DNA of 24,423 bases from an uncultured Pseudomonadales bacterium (GTDB lineage Bacteria; Patescibacteriota; Microgenomatia; UBA1400; UBA12108), in contig CAZBML010000001.1 of NCBI GenBank assembly GCA_964493295.1, positions 4,078-28,500 of the forward strand, read 5' to 3'. Below the pieces are notes generated by a model, which was not told the DNA's origin, ran no database searches, and saw only the letters and a program-made list of their open reading frames with translations. This document shows positions 621 through 17,000 of this stretch, piece by piece. How positions within the stretch are numbered: position 1 is the stretch's first letter; every line of letters begins with the position of its first letter. Made by a program: the position numbers and the translations under genes.

Positions 621-625
621 GAGAT

Positions 626-695
626 AAACTCTAAACCATAAATACTAAACCCTAAATACTAAACCCTAAATACTAAACCCTAAACTCTAAACCAT
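626..695. repeat. Tandem heptamer array, 10 units (AAACTCT/AAACCAT/AAATACT/AAACCCT)
   Basis: Read directly: aaactct aaaccat (aaatact aaaccct)x3 aaactct aaaccat. Confidence 0.95.
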
Positions 696-712
696 AAAAA
701 ACTTGAAAGAAA

Positions 713-1078: not shown

Positions 1079-1090
1079 TGGATATTATTT

Positions 1091-1118
1091 AAGATTTAGT
1101 AATTAGAAATTAGGATTT
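1091..1118. repeat. Heptamer array, 4 units, inverted relative to the 626-695 array
   Basis: aagattt agtaatt agaaatt aggattt; resembles the reverse complement of the left array units (agggttt/agtattt). Confidence 0.75.
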
Positions 1119-1838
1119 ATCGGTTGAGTCAGTTTCCTGATCAATTGTGTGTTGGAGTTCGTCTGCCGAACGGTAGAGATTTTTGAGATCCTCGTAGAGA
1201 GTTTGCATTCCGGTACGAACTGATTTAACTTTTTCTTGGGGAATGAGGAGGGAAAGTGAATCGAGTGCAGAGATGAGCGTATTTTTGAGATTGAGAGAGA
1301 GGAAGAGGAGGGTATCGGTTTCTTCGCTCCCTAAGTGTTTGGAGAGAATCTGGCGAGCCCTTTTTTCCTCGAGACCTGTTTCGTATTGATGACCGGTAAA
1401 AATGGCAAGTGGGGTGATCATCACGAGAGCCAAGAGCTCGGATAAATGGGCTAGATCGGTATGAATCGTGCCTGGGATGAAGAGGAAAAATAGGATGAGG
1501 ACACCAGTCAAGACGAGAGTAGCCTCGATTTCGTAAAGCATGGCCACGGCAAAAAGCAGGAAGTAGCAGAGGAAGAAGAAGGGGGAGGTGAGGGCACCTG
1601 TCTCGGTGACTAGGAGGAGAATCATGGCTGTCAGAATCGTGATATCGAGAGTGATGGCGCTACGATGGAACCATTTGGGTTTTTTGGTTCTGAGCCAGTG
1701 CGAGCCCAAGTAGAGCAGAACGAGTGTGGCGACGAGCTGGAGGGTATAGGGGTGGAGGGCAGGGACGGAGAGCCAAAAATATACTCCGGCAGTGGAGAGG
1801 AGGAGTAGGCTAGTATGGAGCAAGAATCGTGTGGGCAT
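1110..1838 (-). CDS. Hypothetical multi-pass membrane protein with cytoplasmic helical C-terminus
   Basis: 242-aa ORF with about 5 hydrophobic segments followed by a charged helical tail; TGcTATATT lies 7 nt before the ATG. Confidence 0.85.
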   Translation of the reverse strand: MPTRFLLHTSLLLLSTAGVYFWLSVPALHPYTLQLVATLVLLYLGSHWLRTKKPKWFHRSAITLDITILTAMILLLVTETGALTSPFFFLCYFLLFAVAMLYEIEATLVLTGVLILFFLFIPGTIHTDLAHLSELLALVMITPLAIFTGHQYETGLEEKRARQILSKHLGSEETDTLLFLSLNLKNTLISALDSLSLLIPQEKVKSVRTGMQTLYEDLKNLYRSADELQHTIDQETDSTDKS

Positions 1839-3207: not shown

Positions 3208-5712
3208 ATGAAAAAAGCCAAAACTTACGTCCTAGGCATGTTCCCGTACCCCTCAGGTGAGGGTCTGCATGTTGGGCACGTGCGGATATTTACTGCGTGT
3301 GATGTGATGGCCCGCTACTTTAGGATGAAGGGGCAAGATGTCCTCTCCCCGATGGGGTGGGATGCGTTTGGACTGCCGGCGGAGAACGCGGCCATTAAGA
3401 ACAAAACCATCCCCCAGAAGATCGTGCCGCGTAACTACGGTAACTTTAAAAAACAAATGCAGAACTTGTCACTCTCTTTTGATTGGGAGCGCGAATTTGC
3501 GACTACTGATCCAGATTACTATGCCTTCACCCAGTGGATCTTTCTCCAACTTTATAATAAGAAAGATGATGATGGGAGACGGCTAGTATACCGAGAACAG
3601 GTGCCGATCAACTGGTGTCCCAAGTGTTTGACTGGACTGGCGAACGAAGAGGTTTTGGCGGACGGGACGCATGAGCGATGTGGGACGGTGGTAGGCAAAA
3701 AACTTTTGCCACAGTGGGTGATGAGGATCACCGCCTATGCCGAGCGACTGCTAAATGATCTGGACATGGATTTGACGGAGTATTTCGGACAATCAGAAAA
3801 CTCAGAGATCCAGAGAATCAGAGGGTCAGAGAGTCGGAAAGGGTTAGATTGGCCAACTGGTATTTTGGAGATGCAGAGGAACTGGATAGGGAAGAAGGAG
3901 GGAATGCGCCTTTTCCACAAAGTCGAGGGAATGGATTTGCAGTTAGACGCATTTTCTGCTTATCCTATCTGGTGTTTTGCCGATACATTTATGGTTATTG
4001 CACCAGAGCACCCATTGGTTAGTAGGTTGGTTGAGGGCACAGAATACGAAAAGACAGTAAAAGAATTTGTGGAGGAATCGAGTAAGATCACGGCGGAACA
4101 GCGAACAGAAGACAAATTTGAGAAAAAAGGAGTATTTACCGGGAGATATACAAATGATCCCTTTAACCCGGGCAAAAAATTACCTGTTTGGGTAGCTAAC
4201 TTTGCCATGATGGGCTTTGGTACTGGTATTATCCGTTGTTCATCTCATGATCCACGTGACTACGAATTTGCTCTTAAGTACAAAATAACCCTGAAAGAAG
4301 TGGTCGAGAGAACCGATCCGAAAGAACCAGTAAATGCCCATACCAATGAGGGAATACTAAAGGATTCTGGCGTGTTTAGCGGCAAGAGAATAAGTAAAGA
4401 AAGTATAGAAGCAGTAAAAGACTGGATCGAGAACGAGGGTATCGGGAAGAGAGAAACAACCTATCATTTGCGGGACTGGGTGTTTAGTAGACAAAGATAC
4501 TGGGGAGAACCGATACCACTCGTGTATTGTGAGAAGTGTGGAGACGAGAATGGAGTGGTCCCACTGTCAGAAGATCAACTTCCTTTAACCCTGCCCGAGC
4601 TTGAGAGTTATGAGCCGACCGAAACAGGCGAATCACCTTTGGCGAGAGTCAAAGATTGGGTGAGCACTAAATGCCCTCACTGTGGTGGTCGTGCAACACG
4701 AGAGACCGATACCATGCCCAACTGGGCGGGATCTTGCTGGTACTTTTTGGCGTTTGCCTTTTGGCATGGCTCAAATCCTAGATCTCAAATCCTAGACCCT
4801 AAACAAGTTCAAAATTCGAAAGCAAAAACAAATCGACCATACACCGATTGGTGGATGAAGATTGCTTTGCCGGAGATCAAAAAATGGTTGCCGGTCGAGT
4901 GGTACCTGGGCGGGGCAGAGCACGCAGTATTGCACCTTTTATATGCACGTTTCTGGGTGAAAGTGCTCCAGGATTTGGGACTCCTTGATTTCCCTGAGCC
5001 GTTTTTGCGTCTTAGGTCGGTGGGTCTTGTTTTGGCAGAAGATGGCAAGAAAATGAGTAAATCGCTTGGCAATGTGGTCAACCCAGATGATATGGTGGCC
5101 AAATATGGGAGTGATGCTACGCGGATGTATGAGATGTTTATGGGACCATGGGAACAATCAATTGCTTGGGACAGCGGAGCAATCAGTGGGCAAGTACGTT
5201 TCTTGGGGAGAATCAAGGATACGATCAATCAAAAGGGAAAACTGGGGGAGCAGACGACGGGATCTTTAGCGGCCAAACTCAAAGCTCTGGTTAACCGAGT
5301 CGAGGAGGGAGTGTTGAACCAAAAATTTAACACGAGTATCGCGGGGCTGATGGAGTTTGTAAATGCTTGGCGGGAACCTGGGATGGTATTGTCCAGGGAA
5401 CATTTAAACATTTTTGCGGCACTGCTTTCGCTGTTTGCTCCAGAGACAGCCAAGGAAATAGTACAAGGTACGGAACCTTGTAATTGGCCAGATGTGACAG
5501 GGATAGATGAGGGCAAAGAGACGATGGTCACGATCGCCGTGCAAGTCAGTGGGAAACTGAGGGGGACGATCGAAGTGAGTAAGCTGGAATCAGAAAACAA
5601 GGAGAAAGTAGTAGCTCTGGCGATGGAGGATGAGCGAGTGAAGAAGTGGGTAGTGGGAGAAGTCAAAAAGACTATATTTATACCTGGGAAATTGGTGAAT
5701 TTGGTGGTTTGA
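3208..5712 (+). CDS. leuS: Leucine--tRNA ligase (class I)
   Basis: MFPYPSG.GLHVGH (HIGH motif), MGWDAFGLPAENAAI, MQRNWIG, LRDW.FSRQRYWGEPIP, RETDTM, YLGGAEHAVLHLLYARFW, KMSKSLGN, and a C-terminal VQVSGKLRG ... PGKLVNLVV. Confidence 0.99.
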   Translation: MKKAKTYVLGMFPYPSGEGLHVGHVRIFTACDVMARYFRMKGQDVLSPMGWDAFGLPAENAAIKNKTIPQKIVPRNYGNFKKQMQNLSLSFDWEREFATTDPDYYAFTQWIFLQLYNKKDDDGRRLVYREQVPINWCPKCLTGLANEEVLADGTHERCGTVVGKKLLPQWVMRITAYAERLLNDLDMDLTEYFGQSENSEIQRIRGSESRKGLDWPTGILEMQRNWIGKKEGMRLFHKVEGMDLQLDAFSAYPIWCFADTFMVIAPEHPLVSRLVEGTEYEKTVKEFVEESSKITAEQRTEDKFEKKGVFTGRYTNDPFNPGKKLPVWVANFAMMGFGTGIIRCSSHDPRDYEFALKYKITLKEVVERTDPKEPVNAHTNEGILKDSGVFSGKRISKESIEAVKDWIENEGIGKRETTYHLRDWVFSRQRYWGEPIPLVYCEKCGDENGVVPLSEDQLPLTLPELESYEPTETGESPLARVKDWVSTKCPHCGGRATRETDTMPNWAGSCWYFLAFAFWHGSNPRSQILDPKQVQNSKAKTNRPYTDWWMKIALPEIKKWLPVEWYLGGAEHAVLHLLYARFWVKVLQDLGLLDFPEPFLRLRSVGLVLAEDGKKMSKSLGNVVNPDDMVAKYGSDATRMYEMFMGPWEQSIAWDSGAISGQVRFLGRIKDTINQKGKLGEQTTGSLAAKLKALVNRVEEGVLNQKFNTSIAGLMEFVNAWREPGMVLSREHLNIFAALLSLFAPETAKEIVQGTEPCNWPDVTGIDEGKETMVTIAVQVSGKLRGTIEVSKLESENKEKVVALAMEDERVKKWVVGEVKKTIFIPGKLVNLVV
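3793..3841 (+). repeat. Degenerate octamer tract inside leuS
   Basis: tcagaaaa c tcagagat ccagagaa tcagaggg tcagagag tcggaaag, encoding SENSEIQRIRGSESRK. Confidence 0.75.
4774..4821 (+). repeat. Heptamer-based 48-nt coding element in leuS (NPRSQILDPKQVQNSK)
   Basis: ctcaaat cctagat ctcaaat cctagac cctaaac...; 37/48 nt match the copy at 6098-6145 (counted by hand). Confidence 0.8.
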
Positions 5713-5743
5713 TATTGAGCTTAGAGTTTGCTAGGCTTAGGGG

Positions 5744-6325
5744 GTGGAGAAAATTGTAGATTTTTTGAGAGAGTTGGGGGGGATCGTGATTGTGGGGCTC
5801 ATTGGGGGCGGAATTTTGATTTACGGATTAGGGGGAGTGATGGGGGGAGAGCAGGCGACAGTAGAGATTGTCAAAAATCAGCCACAAACTAGCGAGATCG
5901 TGGTTGATGTTGCTGGAGCAGTGGAGAAACCTGGAGTGTATACACTGCCAAGTGGATCAAGGATCGGTGATGCGCTAGTTTTAGCTGGTGGTTTGTCTCT
6001 CAAAGCGGATAGAGAGTGGGTGGCAAAAACGGTTAATCTTGTAGCCCAACTAGAAGATGGTGCCAAAATATACATCCCAAGTACAAACAGTAACGGAAAT
6101 CCTAAATCCGAAGTCCTAAAACCTAGACAAATTCTCAATTCAAAATTGATAAACATTAACACCGCGAGTGTGGGGGAGCTCGATACACTAGCCGGGATTG
6201 GGGAGGTAAGGGCGCAGGCGATTGTGGCCGGGAGGCCGTACAGCGCGACAGAGGAAATAGTGAGTAAAGCCAAGATACCACAGTCGGTATATGAAGAAAT
6301 TAAAGATTTTCTTAGTCTTTATTAG
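5744..6325 (+). CDS. comEA: ComEA competence DNA-binding protein (TM, SLBB and helix-hairpin-helix)
   Basis: IVVDVAGAVEKPGVYTLPSGSRIGDAL..AGGL (SLBB), DG.KIYIP, and ININTAS..ELDTL.GIG..RAQAIV..RPY (HhH). Confidence 0.95.
   Translation: MEKIVDFLRELGGIVIVGLIGGGILIYGLGGVMGGEQATVEIVKNQPQTSEIVVDVAGAVEKPGVYTLPSGSRIGDALVLAGGLSLKADREWVAKTVNLVAQLEDGAKIYIPSTNSNGNPKSEVLKPRQILNSKLININTASVGELDTLAGIGEVRAQAIVAGRPYSATEEIVSKAKIPQSVYEEIKDFLSLY
6098..6145 (+). repeat. Heptamer-based 48-nt coding element in the ComEA linker (NPKSEVLKPRQILNSK)
   Basis: cctaaat ccgaagt cctaaaa cctagac aaatt ctcaatt caaaa; same frame and peptide pattern as the leuS copy. Confidence 0.8.
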
Positions 6326-7457
6326 TTTGTTGCTTTGGCGGTCGATGACGAGCGAGAGTCCACTGCCTGATGGTTGGAGCGCAGAATCAAAGATCAGGTT
6401 GAGTTTTTTAGTCGTAGCGACCCCGGAGTATCAAGATTCCCGTACGATTGTCACAGATGGGATCTGGGAGGTCAGGATCAAGGGTTATGTGCCGATTATA
6501 CCTGGTCAGCGCGTAAAGTTTAGCGGCCCAGTAAAGCCCAAAATGGTACTGAATAGGGTCACAAAAATTGTAATGGTGGATCCGAGCTGGGAAGTGATTG
6601 GCTCTCCTGATCCTCAAACACTCGGGTTAAAAGCTCGGTTTTTGATTGAAGTAGATGAAATGAGAGGGCGGTGGGTCTCGATATTGGCTAGGACATTGCC
6701 ATCGCCGATGGCAGAGCTGGCGATAGGGATTTTGCTCGGAATCAAAGGTCAGATGCCTACCCAGTTTTACCAACAATTAATCAGCACCGGGACGATCCAT
6801 GTAGTGGCGGCCAGCGGATTCAATGTGATGGTGGTGGCAGCGGTTCTGATGAGCTTGGCTCAGCGGATATGGCGCCGGTCGGTTTCGATCATGGCTGGAG
6901 TCGCAGGAGTATTTGTCTATGTGATGTTGGCAGGAGCGAGTGCTTCGGTTGTGCGAGCTGGGATTATGGGGAGCCTAACTTTGATGGCATATAATTTTGG
7001 TCGACCAGCAGAGGCGAAAAGGATTTTGTGGGTCACGGTCTACGCGATGCTGTTGTTTAACCCCTTATATATAGTAGACGTAGGGTTTCAGTTGTCCGTC
7101 TTTGCGACGGCGGGACTATTATATATAGGGCCATGGATGCGAAAGTTACAAAGTTTTGTACCTTGTAATGATTTGGGTAAACAAGGTAGGGAACTTCAAG
7201 CTCAGGCGTATGCATTTTTAGTAGAGTACCTATACCCAACTCTAGCGGCAACGGTTGCGACCATGCCGATCATTCTTTGGCATTTTGGGAGATTATCTTT
7301 GATTTCACCCTTGGTAAATATGTTGATTTTGCCAACCGTCCCGCTGATTATGTTGCTCTCTGCTTTGACTCTCTTAGGAGGACAAGTGGTGGCGTGGATT
7401 ACGTACGTTCCGCTCTGGTGGGTGGTGGGGGTGATAAGATGGTTTGGAAATATATGA
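6291..7457 (+). CDS. comEC: ComEC/Rec2 competence membrane protein (competence domain)
   Basis: GT.HVVAASGFNV, G.SASVVRAGIM, NPLYI.DVGFQLS..AT.GL, PTLAA...T.PI.L.HFG.LSLISP.VN.LI; overlaps the end of comEA. Confidence 0.95.
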   Translation: MKKLKIFLVFISLLLWRSMTSESPLPDGWSAESKIRLSFLVVATPEYQDSRTIVTDGIWEVRIKGYVPIIPGQRVKFSGPVKPKMVLNRVTKIVMVDPSWEVIGSPDPQTLGLKARFLIEVDEMRGRWVSILARTLPSPMAELAIGILLGIKGQMPTQFYQQLISTGTIHVVAASGFNVMVVAAVLMSLAQRIWRRSVSIMAGVAGVFVYVMLAGASASVVRAGIMGSLTLMAYNFGRPAEAKRILWVTVYAMLLFNPLYIVDVGFQLSVFATAGLLYIGPWMRKLQSFVPCNDLGKQGRELQAQAYAFLVEYLYPTLAATVATMPIILWHFGRLSLISPLVNMLILPTVPLIMLLSALTLLGGQVVAWITYVPLWWVVGVIRWFGNI

Positions 7458-8780: not shown

Positions 8781-8952
8781 CATTGCTATGCTGTGGGTAG
8801 GGCTAGGTAGTCAACTATCAATCTCAGATATCGAATGCTAACAGGTTAATTAATACGAGTGCTAAAAATGTGAATACGTCCACAAAGGGGTAAAGTATTT
8901 ACTAGTTTTTACAACTTGTAAAGCTTTGGTAAAGTTGGATGATATGAAAGCT

Positions 8953-8980
8953 AAGATTTAAGATTTATGATTTAGGATGT
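8953..8980. repeat. Heptamer array, 4 units
   Basis: aagattt aagattt atgattt aggatgt. Confidence 0.75.
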
Positions 8981-9265
8981 AAATAAATATAGGGTAAGAG
9001 GAGCGCAAAGTCGAAATTAAATTGTATAAATAATGTTTTGATCCGCTCATTTGATGGATATATAATCTTTTTACCAGGTCTATATCTTATAAATAGAGAG
9101 TAATAATTGTGATCATTGGAGGAGCTTATCTCAGCTGAGTGATGTCGCTGATAGTTTTTTTGATCTAGAGGTCACGATTTATCTCGATAGATATAGGACT
9201 AATCTAGACTTGGTTGGAGAGTGGTAAAAACTAGGAAAAACTGGGTTGTGATACGATGGAGAGAT

Positions 9266-9652
9266 ATGCTAGAGATGGCTTTGTACGCTGCGATAGCCCC
9301 AGTGATTTTGCTCTTGTTGAGCTCGGTAGTCAGCTACCCAGCCGTACTGGAGGAAGTGGTAAAGTGGGGGATACTCAGATTTAGGATTGATGATTTACGA
9401 TTGAGGGTTTATGACGGAGCGGTAGTGGGACTCGTGTTTGGGTTGTCGGAAGCGGTGCTGTATTTGAGCACTACGTGGGGCAGTGGGCAATGGAACTCTT
9501 TGGGATGGCGACTAATTTTGACCGTACCTATGCACACATTGAGTGGTGCAATCATTGGGATAGGACGAGGTGTGCGAGGGGGATGGATACTCGTGTTTGT
9601 GGCGATGGCAATCCATGCTGGATTTAATTATTGGGCATCATTGACGTTGTAG
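9266..9652 (+). CDS. prsW: PrsW-family intramembrane metalloprotease (short form)
   Basis: EE..K, G..G..FG..E, R....VPMH and H..FN motifs. Start moved from GTG 9221 to ATG 9266, which has TGaTACGAT 8 nt upstream. Confidence 0.8.
   Translation: MLEMALYAAIAPVILLLLSSVVSYPAVLEEVVKWGILRFRIDDLRLRVYDGAVVGLVFGLSEAVLYLSTTWGSGQWNSLGWRLILTVPMHTLSGAIIGIGRGVRGGWILVFVAMAIHAGFNYWASLTL
9376..9410 (+). repeat. Heptamer array, 5 units, translated inside prsW (RFRIDDLRLRV)
   Basis: cagattt aggattg atgattt acgattg agggttt. Confidence 0.8.
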
Positions 9653-13834: not shown

Positions 13835-13905
13835 AGGATTTAGGAAGTAGGAAGGCAGGATTTAGGAATTAGGAGTTAGGAAATAGGAATTAGGATTTAA
13901 GAAAG
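13835..13905. repeat. Heptamer array, about 10 units (AGGAWWT)
   Basis: aggattt aggaagt aggaagg c aggattt aggaatt aggagtt aggaaat aggaatt aggattt aagaaag. Confidence 0.9.
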
Positions 13906-14044: not shown

Positions 14045-17000
14045 ATGGCCACAATCAGTGTAGATCAGTATAACGACGACGGGACGACTAGTAGAACTGC
14101 AGGGGAAGCACTGACCATAAATGGCGCCACCTTTACCCAGCGCACCGACACTAGATGGCACGCGACGGCGCCCGCCAGTATGACGGGTACTTACGGCGAT
14201 ATTCTCCCCAGTGCTACCCTAGGCGGCCGAATGGTGATTGACGCGACCGCTGTGCGCTGGCTCGCCTATGACAGCGGGAGTGGGAACGTGCCCGCGATCG
14301 GAACCGATATCACCCAGGCGGGCGTGAGTGCGAGTTATCTGCTGGGAGTTTATGCCTCGCTGACCTCGGCGCCCACGACGGTTGGTAATGCGATGCCGGC
14401 CACAGGATACCTCAAGTTTCGCGAGGTAACGGGAGCGTTTGTGAGCGGAGCGCTCACTGGGATTGGGGGCAGTGCAACTGGCGCGGATACTGCCGGGTGG
14501 ATAGAAGTTGTCATGGACAGCGCCGCTGGGACCGACATTAATATCCCTCGCCTGGGGGAGTTTGAGACGCGAGGCAAATGGTTTTACCTGGATAATACCG
14601 ACGGGACGACCGCCCAAGTCTTGCAGGTGCCAACTAATGGGGGAGGAGCCACTACTCACTCCCCAGGGGTGTGGATCGAAAAAGCCACCGCTAGCGCGGC
14701 TACTTATTCGCTATCCGGTAACACCGTGACCGTGACCCTAGCGAGCCACGGTTACTTTGTGGGTGACGACATTGATATCAACTTTACGAGCGGGGGAGTG
14801 TCTGGTGAGGACACCTACCATATCCTGACTGTCCCTACTTCATCGACCTTTACGGTAGCCAAAACGGCTAGCAACACCAGTGGCAACTGTAGTGTCTCAC
14901 AATTTGAGTACTATCCGTCCTCGGCCGGGGCCACGACCGGGTGGAGTCAATCTCACATCGGGAGCCCGGGACTGGACGGAGCGAATGATGATCTGCGCCA
15001 AAAATTTGTCAAAAGTATCGGGACGGGACAGATGCAAATAGGGGAAAATGCCACTCAGTCCGCCACTTATACGACTGCATCAATTGCCGGGACTTATACC
15101 TGGACGGCCAACGTCGTGACGGTGACCTCGACGGCGCACGGTCTGCGGGTAGGGGAGCAAGTATATCTCGACTTTACCAGTGGGGGCGCGACGCCCGACG
15201 GGGTCTATACGATTGTGACCAACGCGGCCAATACTTTTACTGTGGCACTAAGCGGATCTGGTACCGCTGGTAATGTGACTGTCTGGGCAAGGAGCACCGT
15301 AACTTTTACGGCGCACGGCTATGCCATTGGCAACAAAGTACACCTCAATTGGACGAGTGGGGGAATAAGTACTGATGGAATTTATCTGGTGGAGACGGTG
15401 CCCACGGCCAATACTTTTACCATTAATACCTATACTAATTCAGGAACCGGGGGAAATGTGAGTATTGAGATGACGATCGGGTATATCCCCCCCGCTGGAC
15501 TAAGAACCAGGGTACCCAATATCTTCTTGAGGCAGTGTGCAACCGGCAGTCGGGCCACCAACGCGGCGCCCAATGCCACGATTACCACGCGACCGGAGTT
15601 TATTACAACGAGCGCGGGGGCAATTGATATTGAGTACACCTACGGCGATTGGTACTTTAACTTCCTCCAGCCGTACTCGGTCCACCTGAATCACGTGGCC
15701 TCGTTTGACTCGATCTTGATCCAGGAGTGCGCAACAGCGCTCGACATTAATGACACCAGCTTGTCGATGTATGGTTCCCTCGATATTAATACACTCAACT
15801 GCGCGTCAAATTTTGCGGGGGGAACGATTGCAAATTGCACTTTGGTGCGGGGAAATGCTCCAGGGTCTAGCGATCATGGTATTGTGATTACTTCGTGTAA
15901 AGATTTGGATCTAGTGAATGTAAAGGGGGGTATCCTCCAGTTTGCCCGCAGTACCGGGTACTCGTTTGTGATTACCAGCTGTAATAATGTAAGTCTAAGC
16001 AGGTGTGTGAGCACCAACTCGACGACGATCTCACTCGTGACCTCGAAAGACATTACGATTAGCGATCTTAACTGGGTAGATCGGTATATGGGGATGACCA
16101 ATGCCACGGCGTCCTCCTATTGTGTGACCATTGGGGCAGGGATAGTAAACACGGTGATTGATGGCATTACTTTTGGGTACGGCGGGATAGTGAGCGACGT
16201 CCACCCGTATGCGGGACTGGTGTCTTTTACGGCGACGGTCAATACCACGATTCGTAATGCCGGTAGTCGCAGTAGCATGCTGAGTGGAGGGAGTATCCCC
16301 CTGTGGAGGATGGGTATTTTGTTTGTGACGGGAGGGAATAACGATACGGTCAAAATCCAGCGGATTTACATCGAGAGTTTGACGACGCGCGCGGGGATTT
16401 TGACCCAACTTAATACCGATACCGGCATCACCATGGAGTCGGTGTTTAACTATCGGTATACCACGGCGGCGGGTGTGGCAACCGATTACACTGTGACACC
16501 TTTATTTCTCAATGCAACTCACAAGGGGGTTGGGGCGGCGCTCAATAGTGTTAGTCCGCAAGTTTCGGTCTATGGTACTCACTGGATGGATCTCTTTACA
16601 AGTGACACTACAGGTAGGGTGGTAGCGATCATGAATGAACCGACATCCGCCACGGTGAACTACAGTACTCTCACGATTGCTGGGCTTGGAGGTTTTACGT
16701 CGGCTGGTTCACTATCTCTGCAATCGGTTGGTGATGAGTATATCCTTGAGTGTCCGTACTGGATCTTGGGACATACAGGACTGAGCAATACCACAGCGAC
16801 GGTAACGGGAACCAACGTGACTTATGTGAGTGGACCCGATTATGGCAACCATGATATTTACTACCAAATCGATACGGGGAGCGGGTGGAATGGGAGCTGG
16901 AAAGACTTGAGTGGTACAAATTTAAGTGGCGAGTCGGTGAGTCCAACCGGATTTCGACTTAAGTTTAGGGTGGTATGTGATAATGCGGCCACCACCAACG

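Follow-up and report, generated by a model that had tools for sequence, protein, structure and literature searches.

A heptamer-built DNA repeat translated in LeuRS, ComEA and other unrelated proteins of a Microgenomates-type bacterium

How do two unrelated proteins come to carry the same short peptide, encoded by nearly the same DNA? This question is raised by the window, the whole stretch of 24,423 nt analysed here, in which the leuS gene (3208..5712, forward strand, 834 amino acids) lies next to comEA (5744..6325, forward strand, 193 amino acids). By Pfam, the first open reading frame (ORF) is a leucyl-tRNA synthetase (LeuRS) with tRNA-synt_1, editing and anticodon domains, and the second is ComEA with SLBB (residues 53–91) and HHH_3 (132–190) domains. 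An initial annotation of the sequence proposed that one 48-nt element sits in frame in both genes, in a loop of LeuRS and in the linker between the SLBB and helix-hairpin-helix (HhH) domains of ComEA. Rereading of the sequence bore this out: the copies at 4774..4821 (LeuRS residues 523–538, NPRSQILDPKQVQNSK) and 6098..6145 (ComEA residues 119–134, NPKSEVLKPRQILNSK), both on the forward strand, match at 37 of 48 nt, without gaps and in one common frame. They belong to a dispersed DNA-level repeat, and we consider it probable that a templated process resembling gene conversion writes and overwrites this repeat, while selection removes stop codons from the copies inside genes. We call this TAAATCC-type repeat Y, and a related repeat of sister genomes X.

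The genome that carries the window (G000; 865 kb in 127 contigs, 46.6% GC, 72% complete) is that of a tiny, Microgenomates-type bacterium of the Candidate Phyla Radiation (CPR). Its LeuRS homologs are named Microgenomates or Patescibacteria, and the public runs matching it best are wastewater metagenomes. Coordinates without a contig name are positions in the window. Family members in G000 were sought by iterated nhmmer (E < 0.01) and with R1, a sequence-only covariance model built from an alignment (A1) of 22 copies. G000 was compared with almost the whole genome of the closest available relative (G007; 1.03 Mb), which gave 617 reciprocal-best ortholog pairs with a median identity of 93.5% and a background of 84.8% nucleotide identity and 71.2% identity at third positions (191,431 codons). 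A survey of congeners and the order searched 19 genomes for X and for Y1 transposase genes.

A DNA repeat translated in unrelated genes

The agreement between the leuS and comEA copies is not due to chance, because shuffled genomes yielded neither the 48-mer nor the 29-nt core of heptamers plus tail: six 48-mers within 11 mismatches of the leuS copy occur in G000 versus none in each of 10 first-order Markov shuffles, and the core occurs at 19 loci versus none in 5 shuffles. The Y unit consists of four TAAATCC-type heptamers in a fixed register, followed by the tail TAAA(C/T)AAATTCnAAATTCnAAA; the four-unit register and the non-repeat tail are common to the 22 aligned copies, and array-only members of varying length are also present. 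R1 matched the leuS copy at 4773–4823 (E = 4.9e-13) and the comEA copy at 6097–6147 (E = 4.3e-16), and Tandem Repeats Finder (TRF) reported a period of 14 at 4770–4796 and of 7 at 6097–6125. The additional copies expected from the DNA consensus were found throughout the genome, at 58 loci by nhmmer and 46 by R1, with 85 loose heptamer-pattern matches when overlaps are counted. The GC content of the copies is 0.29–0.35.

The peptide pattern occurs in eight unrelated, Pfam-identified ORFs of G000: LeuRS, ComEA, an RluA-type pseudouridine synthase, a GT4 glycosyltransferase, a sugar-transfer ATP-grasp protein, phosphoribosyl pyrophosphate (PRPP) synthetase, RecF and the large subunit of ribonucleotide reductase (RNR). 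Full, tail-bearing, stop-free copies, all in one frame, are present in six of them (LeuRS, ComEA, RNR, RecF, GT4 and the pseudouridine synthase), and array-only copies in PRPP synthetase and the ATP-grasp protein. A 624-aa ORF on contig C114 contains a further copy in a different frame, and 12 array-only genic copies are read from the opposite strand to give DLRFKIQDLR-type peptides. Further in-frame hosts were identified in six other genomes (G005, G007, G010, G013, G015 and G023).

A pure heptamer array places a stop in each frame every 21 nt. In the NPKSE frame of the unit, TAA falls at codon 5, and also at codon 11 in the tail variant starting TAAAT. The genic copies have GAA, CAA or GGA instead of the codon-5 stop and CAA at codon 11, with the peptide consensus NPKS(E/Q)ILNPKQ(I/V)xNSK, whereas 16 of 16 aligned intergenic copies contain at least one stop in this frame. 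The retention of a stop-free frame, suggested in the initial annotation, describes the six full genic copies and not the intergenic ones. Mismatches between the six genic copies and the family consensus number 15, 14 and 18 of 96 at codon positions 1, 2 and 3, respectively. Because mismatches are even over codon positions, other frames are used and intergenic copies carry stops, the repeat unit is DNA and not peptide, without protein-level constraint, and the earlier proposal of spread at the DNA level stands. A selected linker or interaction peptide, that is, a module at the protein level, would fit the hydrophilic character of the peptide and its position in loops and linkers, but the flat substitution pattern, the use of the same DNA in other frames and on the opposite strand, the non-coding location of most copies and the close orthologs without the peptide make it hardly credible.

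The LeuRS copy is flanked by SCWYFLAFAFW and WLPVEWYLGG. In the AlphaFold model (mean pLDDT 82.8), residues 521–540 score 48 and 62 in two blocks, versus 83 and 88 for the flanks, which indicates a flexible loop in the predicted structure. The closest LeuRS among 5.8 billion proteins, encoded on metagenome contig L120, is 82% identical in the searched region and 88.9% identical over the whole alignment, and has the element at the identical site; the leuS copy is therefore not new to G000. A near-identical LeuRS without the element was not found among these proteins, the nearest one having it. Contigs assembled from public runs of two independent studies contain the leuS element in both studies and the comEA element in one, with single-nucleotide polymorphisms (SNPs) and no gaps; one strain SNP, at position 4797 in the leuS copy, shifts toward the family consensus. 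RNA folding z-scores are close to 0 for genic copies (leuS, −0.04; comEA, −0.49).

Crude longest-ORF calls put the coding fraction of the genome at ~91%, yet most loci (36 of 58) are intergenic. The C-containing strand comes after stop codons, and the complementary (AGGATTT)n strand leads up to start codons: 19 of the 36 intergenic copies have an ORF of 60 aa or more starting −9 to +40 nt from their AGGATTT end, whereas 200 draws of random intergenic points gave 8.6 on average and never more than 14. Several spacers consist of an inverted pair that occupies the entire gap from stop codon to next start codon. The AGGA motifs that end intergenic copies may act as ribosome-binding sites, a Shine–Dalgarno role being plausible from their position, and the inverted pairs may form intercistronic hairpins.

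Two further observations concern translated copies. A Y copy stays open on its opposite strand in G000 (C72 2321–2372) and in G008 (C46 6111–6162, L077), where it encodes a hydrophobic, signal-peptide-like N-terminal stretch (LGFRIWNLGFISPVQA); the N-terminus in G007 is hydrophobic and unrelated in sequence. At the C-terminus of PRPP synthetase (G000 C61 4030–4065), the heptamer array directly adjoins a small GC hairpin (GTCGCGCAAAGCGCGAC), and translation runs through the two (AQSATNPKSKILNPK); the sequence at this position in G007 is unrelated.

Conservation and replacement of copies among relatives

We compared the copies with the genes around them. Ten genic copies common to G000 and G007 are identical at 92.6% of nucleotides and 91.1% of third positions, both above the ortholog background (p = 1.5e-6 and 1.4e-8, respectively). 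The X copy in RNR is identical between G007 and G009 at 36 of 36 nt, versus 47.5% at third positions in the remainder of the gene, and the leuS copy of G000 agrees with that of L120 at 14 of 16 third positions, versus 63% in the remainder. The copies thus show excess conservation at the DNA level. Because third positions exceed the gene background in all three comparisons, the repeats are constrained or kept uniform as DNA.

X is built on AAATTCTCAAATTCTCAAATTGG with a period of 8 nt, and occurs in 17–32 copies, genic and intergenic, in each of six genomes (G002, G005, G006, G007, G008 and G009; for example L102, L107 and L113). It is translated in at least two frames, as ESQIKNSQILKLE in RNR and as KFSNSQI in RecF and GT4. 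Among the 19 genomes searched, X was not found outside the genus, and a reversed-pattern control gave no matches within it. G000 has no X within 4 mismatches, and only one degenerate X-like copy. Near-identical X copies occur in unrelated genes of G007 and G009 (28/28, 30/31 and 32/34 nt). R1 matches are similarly patchy, with 46 in G000, 20 in G007, 7 in G008 and 1–5 in most congeners; beyond the genus, several family members have none and some other families of the order have 7–16.

This conservation could also reflect a functional DNA or RNA signal, such as an array bound by a protein, a cassette acting as leader or ribosome-binding site, or a signal of the uptake type, maintained by purifying selection or molecular drive, with genic copies tolerated or used. 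Such a signal would explain why synonymous sites of the common copies lie far above the gene background, and it agrees with an X consensus that is exact in six or more genomes with synonymous sites near saturation, with variants specific to a genome or genus (X versus Y), with placement beside starts and stops and inverted pairs after genes, and with the SNP at 4797. It is less easily reconciled with a density of ~1 per 10–19 kb, far under that of the uptake sequences generally known, with entry into genes by insertions of 13–24 residues instead of substitution, with whole copies swapped or lost among close relatives at no visible cost, or with the absence of any Rfam family match within the window. 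We know of no protein that binds the heptamer repeat, and consider this explanation unlikely.

Orthologous sites differ by discrete blocks, as the initial annotation had led us to look for. RNR, RecF and GT4 of G002, G005 and G010 have no insert at the site; RNR and RecF have X in G007 and G009 and Y in G000; GT4 has X in G009, Y in G000 and, in G007, an X-like repeat that encloses a GC hairpin; and the ATP-grasp site has X in G007 and Y in G000. LeuRS and ComEA of G007 are without the element, the ComEA linker there being of equal length and unrelated sequence. In the LeuRS homolog P0004, an insert of equal length at the same place is made of AAATTCG-type units. Across Microgenomates, the LeuRS loop between SCWYFLAFAFW and WLPVxWYLGG is hypervariable (14 to ~49 residues), and depending on the genome it holds in-frame GC hairpins, other heptamer peptides or whole inverted pairs. 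These comparisons demonstrate whole-unit replacement at identical sites by other repeat variants in sister genomes.

As a side observation, the LeuRS loop of five genomes (G002, G003, G010, G011 and G016; L008, L010, L009, L017 and L022) contains translated, in-frame, GC-rich inverted repeats, as does the ComEA linker of G006 and G003 (L044 and L041). These repeats are near-perfect to perfect, with arms of ~12–19 bp, and lie at the sites of the heptamer element in G000.

G007 has 11 genic X copies, and the orthologous site in G000 is comparable for 10. These sites hold Y in two cases, opposite-orientation arrays in three, an 8-mer array in one, a GC hairpin in one, degenerate X in one and no such repeat in two. 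The GC hairpin is at the N-terminus of the gene at 6291–7457, where the first 26 codons (window 6291–6370) contain the in-frame hairpin ACCTTGT...ACAAGGT with the peptide FVPCNDLGKQG; in the ortholog of G007, an X repeat (MRNIKSKILKFSNE) takes the place of the hairpin.

Spacers also turn over. At the C9 spacer, G000 has a 104-nt inverted Y pair; G007 has 19 unrelated nt there instead, and the sequences on either side are 97% and 92% identical. Elsewhere, the orthologous spacer arrays of G000 (C27 8225–8278) and G007 (C14, L125) differ by a T-to-C change in nearly every heptamer (ATTTAGG versus ATCTAGA type), and their units change in concert.

Such a unit-wide change is what homogenisation by slippage gives, and it could speak for independent low-complexity drift, in which each loop slips on its own and LeuRS and ComEA resemble one another by convergence on a favoured unit. 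Heptamer arrays of many differing units across the order, and a ComEA linker of similar length across the genus, point the same way. Drift of this kind is nevertheless very improbable given the non-repetitive tail and four-unit register in common, the 29-nt core repeated at 19 loci and in no shuffle, and the close match between X copies from unrelated genes in G007 and G009.

We also asked how far heptamer repeats contribute to length differences in general. The idea that indels between G000 and G007 stem mainly from them was rejected, most of the 203 internal indels of at least 4 aa being without 7-nt periodicity. Several of these indels are GC-rich hairpins (peptides PSFAKASEGK, TSPEGSAG and SLPARPGP), a second class of repeat that adds residues.

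Tests for mobility and for templated copying

The initial annotation left open whether the element is mobile or templated, and suggested target-site duplications as a check. Neither the sequences flanking the six genic copies nor the C9 presence/absence site showed any, and the ends of the A1-aligned copies are not mutually inverted, so that terminal inverted repeats are likewise lacking. G000 has four Y1_Tnp genes (IS200/RAYT-like; RAYT, REP-associated tyrosine transposase, where REP stands for repetitive extragenic palindromic), which are flanked by GC-rich hairpins and have no heptamer family matches next to them. No TnpB was found in G000, the search for transposases having covered only Y1 and TnpB. 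Across the 19 genomes, Y1 counts do not correspond to X or Y counts: G010 has 9 Y1 matches with ~1 X and 1 Y, and G008 has no Y1 match with 29 X and 7 Y. Y1_Tnp is present at 2–9 per genome in 9 of the 10 other genomes of the genus that were searched, the one without being G008 (66% complete). Y1/RAYT transposases were therefore rejected as mobilisers of the repeat, on account of their GC-hairpin flanks and of counts that do not track it.

A classical non-autonomous mobile element, either a miniature inverted-repeat transposable element (MITE) or similar to a Rickettsia palindromic element (RPE) or REPIN, would be moved by an enzyme in trans, for example a Y1 HUH transposase, with selection for in-frame insertions. 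The presence of four Y1_Tnp genes allows for this, and Y1 enzymes do not need a target duplication. The discrete length, the dispersed copies and their patchy numbers among congeners would also be expected of such an element, as would the full inverted pairs, which lie in spacers and, for other Microgenomates, are also read in frame within LeuRS, and the entire 104-nt pair present in G000 and absent from G007. Genic and intergenic copies are, however, without terminal inverted repeats or target-site duplications, the genic copies are unfolded (z ~0), and the Y1 genes adjoin GC-rich hairpins instead of arrays, with untracked counts and no TnpB. We find this explanation quite doubtful. The earlier inference is thus supported, with "templated" the better of its two words: duplications, terminal repeats and an associated transposase are missing, and at several sites another repeat variant has taken over in place, which differs from simple insertion.

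The Y1 genes have repeats of their own. The GC-rich hairpin repeat CACGGGCGGACACAGGGGTCCGCCC (G000 C41 3137–3525) flanks a RAYT-like Y1 gene (C41 3289–3789); allowing up to 4 mismatches, it has 6 copies, of which 3 are exact, and is also found at C10 7306, C41 1056 and C43 6499. One copy is in frame inside the RAYT-like gene (HGRTQGSAPT) and another inside the gene C43 5646–6902. Together, these hairpins and the Y1 gene look like a REP/RAYT system separate from the heptamer family. Two hairpins of identical sequence (ACGGCCTAAAGGCCGTGG) enclose an IS200-like Y1 gene (G000 C8 11251–11744, 139 aa, Pfam E 7.5e-38). Most Y1 ORFs are 220–280 aa and match just the C-terminal two thirds of the Pfam model, and they are many for genomes of 0.8–1.0 Mb.

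Taken together, the results favour templated rewriting of a DNA repeat. The usual home of Y is the intergenic spacer. Copying between dispersed arrays would be templated and gene-conversion-like, or copies would arise by a mobilisation leaving no target duplication; neither slippage at each site nor a classical transposase would make the copies. Some copies also lie in permissive loops and linkers of proteins, and within genes they survive only if stops are altered (TAA to GAA or CAA) and the length keeps the frame. Such survivors, stop-free and frame-keeping, encode the NPKS(E/Q)ILNPKQ(I/V)xNSK peptide.

Several points weigh against templated copying. The synonymous-site conservation could equally be explained by selection on a DNA or RNA function, and recurrent independent insertion into a few tolerant loops could mimic replacement. 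No copying event has been caught: contigs from the wastewater runs, which cannot show absence, revealed no presence/absence polymorphism. In the intergenic inverted pairs, only 5 of 7 fold better than shuffles, and weakly (z −2.1 to −3.9), and abutting arrays place AGGA at −7 and −14, at the edges of the genome-wide AGGA peak of −14 to −9. In addition, the coding fraction depends on longest-ORF heuristics, and absences in G000 are provisional because the genome is only 72% complete.

A bolder possibility is that the heptamer elements are more than junk: they could serve as sequence-specific signals, or as substrates for a dedicated system of templated copying that keeps them near-identical in species with saturated synonymous sites and rewrites them in place (X to Y, with orientation flips). 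We regard this as conceivable but unlikely. If true, a CPR mechanism so far undescribed would write short periodic DNA into spacers and protein loops.

Other arrays, known repeat systems and biological meaning

Further family arrays are found in the window. Directly after the stop of ORF 30–620 lies an intergenic array of ~10 TAAACCC/TAAATAC units (625..704, forward strand; TRF 625–698; R1 625–658 and 660–704), and an intergenic array on the reverse strand (1081..1119; R1 E 0.0015) lies between the stop of ORF 1110–1838(−) and the start of ORF 713–1078(−). The latter ORF encodes a four-helix bundle, and we tried it as an array-bracketed master element; this was rejected, the arrays being the after-stop arrays of neighbouring genes. 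A third intergenic array (8952..8981, reverse strand; TRF 8952–8982; R1 E 3.6e-06) shows TAAGATT units on the forward strand. The R1 match at 9379..9411 (reverse strand) is within ORF 9221–9652 and translated from its opposite strand (ILRFRIDDLRLRVYD); it agrees with G007 at 40 of 42 nt and 13 of 14 third positions. An (AGGAATT/AGGATTT)n array (13835..13903, forward strand; TRF 13835–13903; R1 13857–13882 and 13884–13902) lies ~140 nt upstream of a giant gene that starts at 14045.

Repeats in frame in many unrelated genes are known from Rickettsia as RPEs (PMC10969869). By function, RPEs are the closest counterpart of Y: in a reduced genome, both are repeats dispersed in frame over unrelated genes for metabolism and housekeeping, and both add a peptide to loops while the protein stays intact. 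The likeness is functional only: an RPE is ~150 bp with its own conserved peptide ORF, whereas the genic Y unit is a single, non-folding arm of 48–55 nt with a 7-nt period, and Y is mostly intergenic and translated in several frames and from both strands. RPEs are reportedly palindromic, as described by Ogata and colleagues. The genic copies in leuS and comEA are no palindromic units of ~100–150 bp, full palindromes being found only in spacers and in LeuRS of distant relatives.

The closest structural analogues are the heptanucleotide repeats (STRRs) of cyanobacteria and xanthomonads, with the units GGGAATC and GGGGAYT, a preference for four units and a location within ~50 bp of ORF ends (PMC4692102). 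These are G-rich, with a proposed ability to form quadruplexes, and are described as pure arrays that vary in unit number and are depleted from coding DNA (PMC4692102). Y shares with them the head-to-tail 7-nt units, the four-unit preference, the dispersal and the strand-specific non-coding enrichment by ORF starts and stops, but it is AT-rich, has a common non-repeat tail in fixed register, is translated in many copies and shows a mirror-image relation of strand to ORFs. It does not behave as a pure array varying by slippage, as STRR and LSSR repeats do, and fits pure tandem repeats only in part. The small dispersed repeats of Nostocaceae (SDR1–8) are said to have been described by Elhai et al. 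in 2008 as 21–27 nt long, mostly non-coding, with signs of movement, tied to heptamer arrays or hairpins and without a known transposase. They resemble Y in being very small (<100 nt) dispersed repeats with heptamer arrays and hairpins; in G000, a GC hairpin abuts the array in the PRPP synthetase gene. They differ in phylum and sequence, and are not known to be translated in essential genes or to show excess conservation of synonymous sites.

REP elements are extragenic, GC-rich palindromes of 20–40 bp that flank a RAYT gene (PMC3116915, PMC3733652). Y resembles REP/REPIN–RAYT systems in its short dispersed copies, often in inverted pairs after genes, in a family that evolves within the genome and in the presence of Y1 genes; it differs in being AT-rich, away from the Y1 genes and independent of them in number, and the separate GC-hairpin family of G000 fits such a system better. 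Y thus lacks the defining properties of MITE and REP/RAYT elements. DNA uptake sequences and uptake signal sequences comprise cores of 9–12 nt, occur at ~1 per kb and arise by substitution. The parallels with Y are conservation as DNA that reaches beyond synonymous sites, dialects of species, inverted pairs located after genes and genic copies in tolerant frames and regions, whereas Y and X units are 35–55 nt long, 10- to 20-fold rarer and get into genes by insertion; with 46–58 scored matches in 865 kb, Y falls well below 1 per kb. We found no paper on such repeats in CPR/Patescibacteria.

Small dispersed repeats in frame are already known, and the mechanistic interest of the present family is in the combination of synonymous-site conservation with in-place replacement. 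Synonymous conservation of 91% in the repeats versus 71% in their host genes, together with whole-unit replacement at fixed sites, points either to a process that copies or homogenises the repeats or to a function as DNA or RNA, undescribed in these organisms, and the family offers a tractable system in which constraint on the DNA prevails over that on codons. For annotation, some length differences in loops and linkers of CPR proteins, and some low-complexity segments, are repeat DNA and not protein features; for protein engineering, the sites mark loops that tolerate 13–40 extra residues. Ultra-small CPR bacteria have scarce spare DNA, and yet the essential enzymes LeuRS, ribonucleotide reductase, RecF and PRPP synthetase carry a translated spacer repeat.

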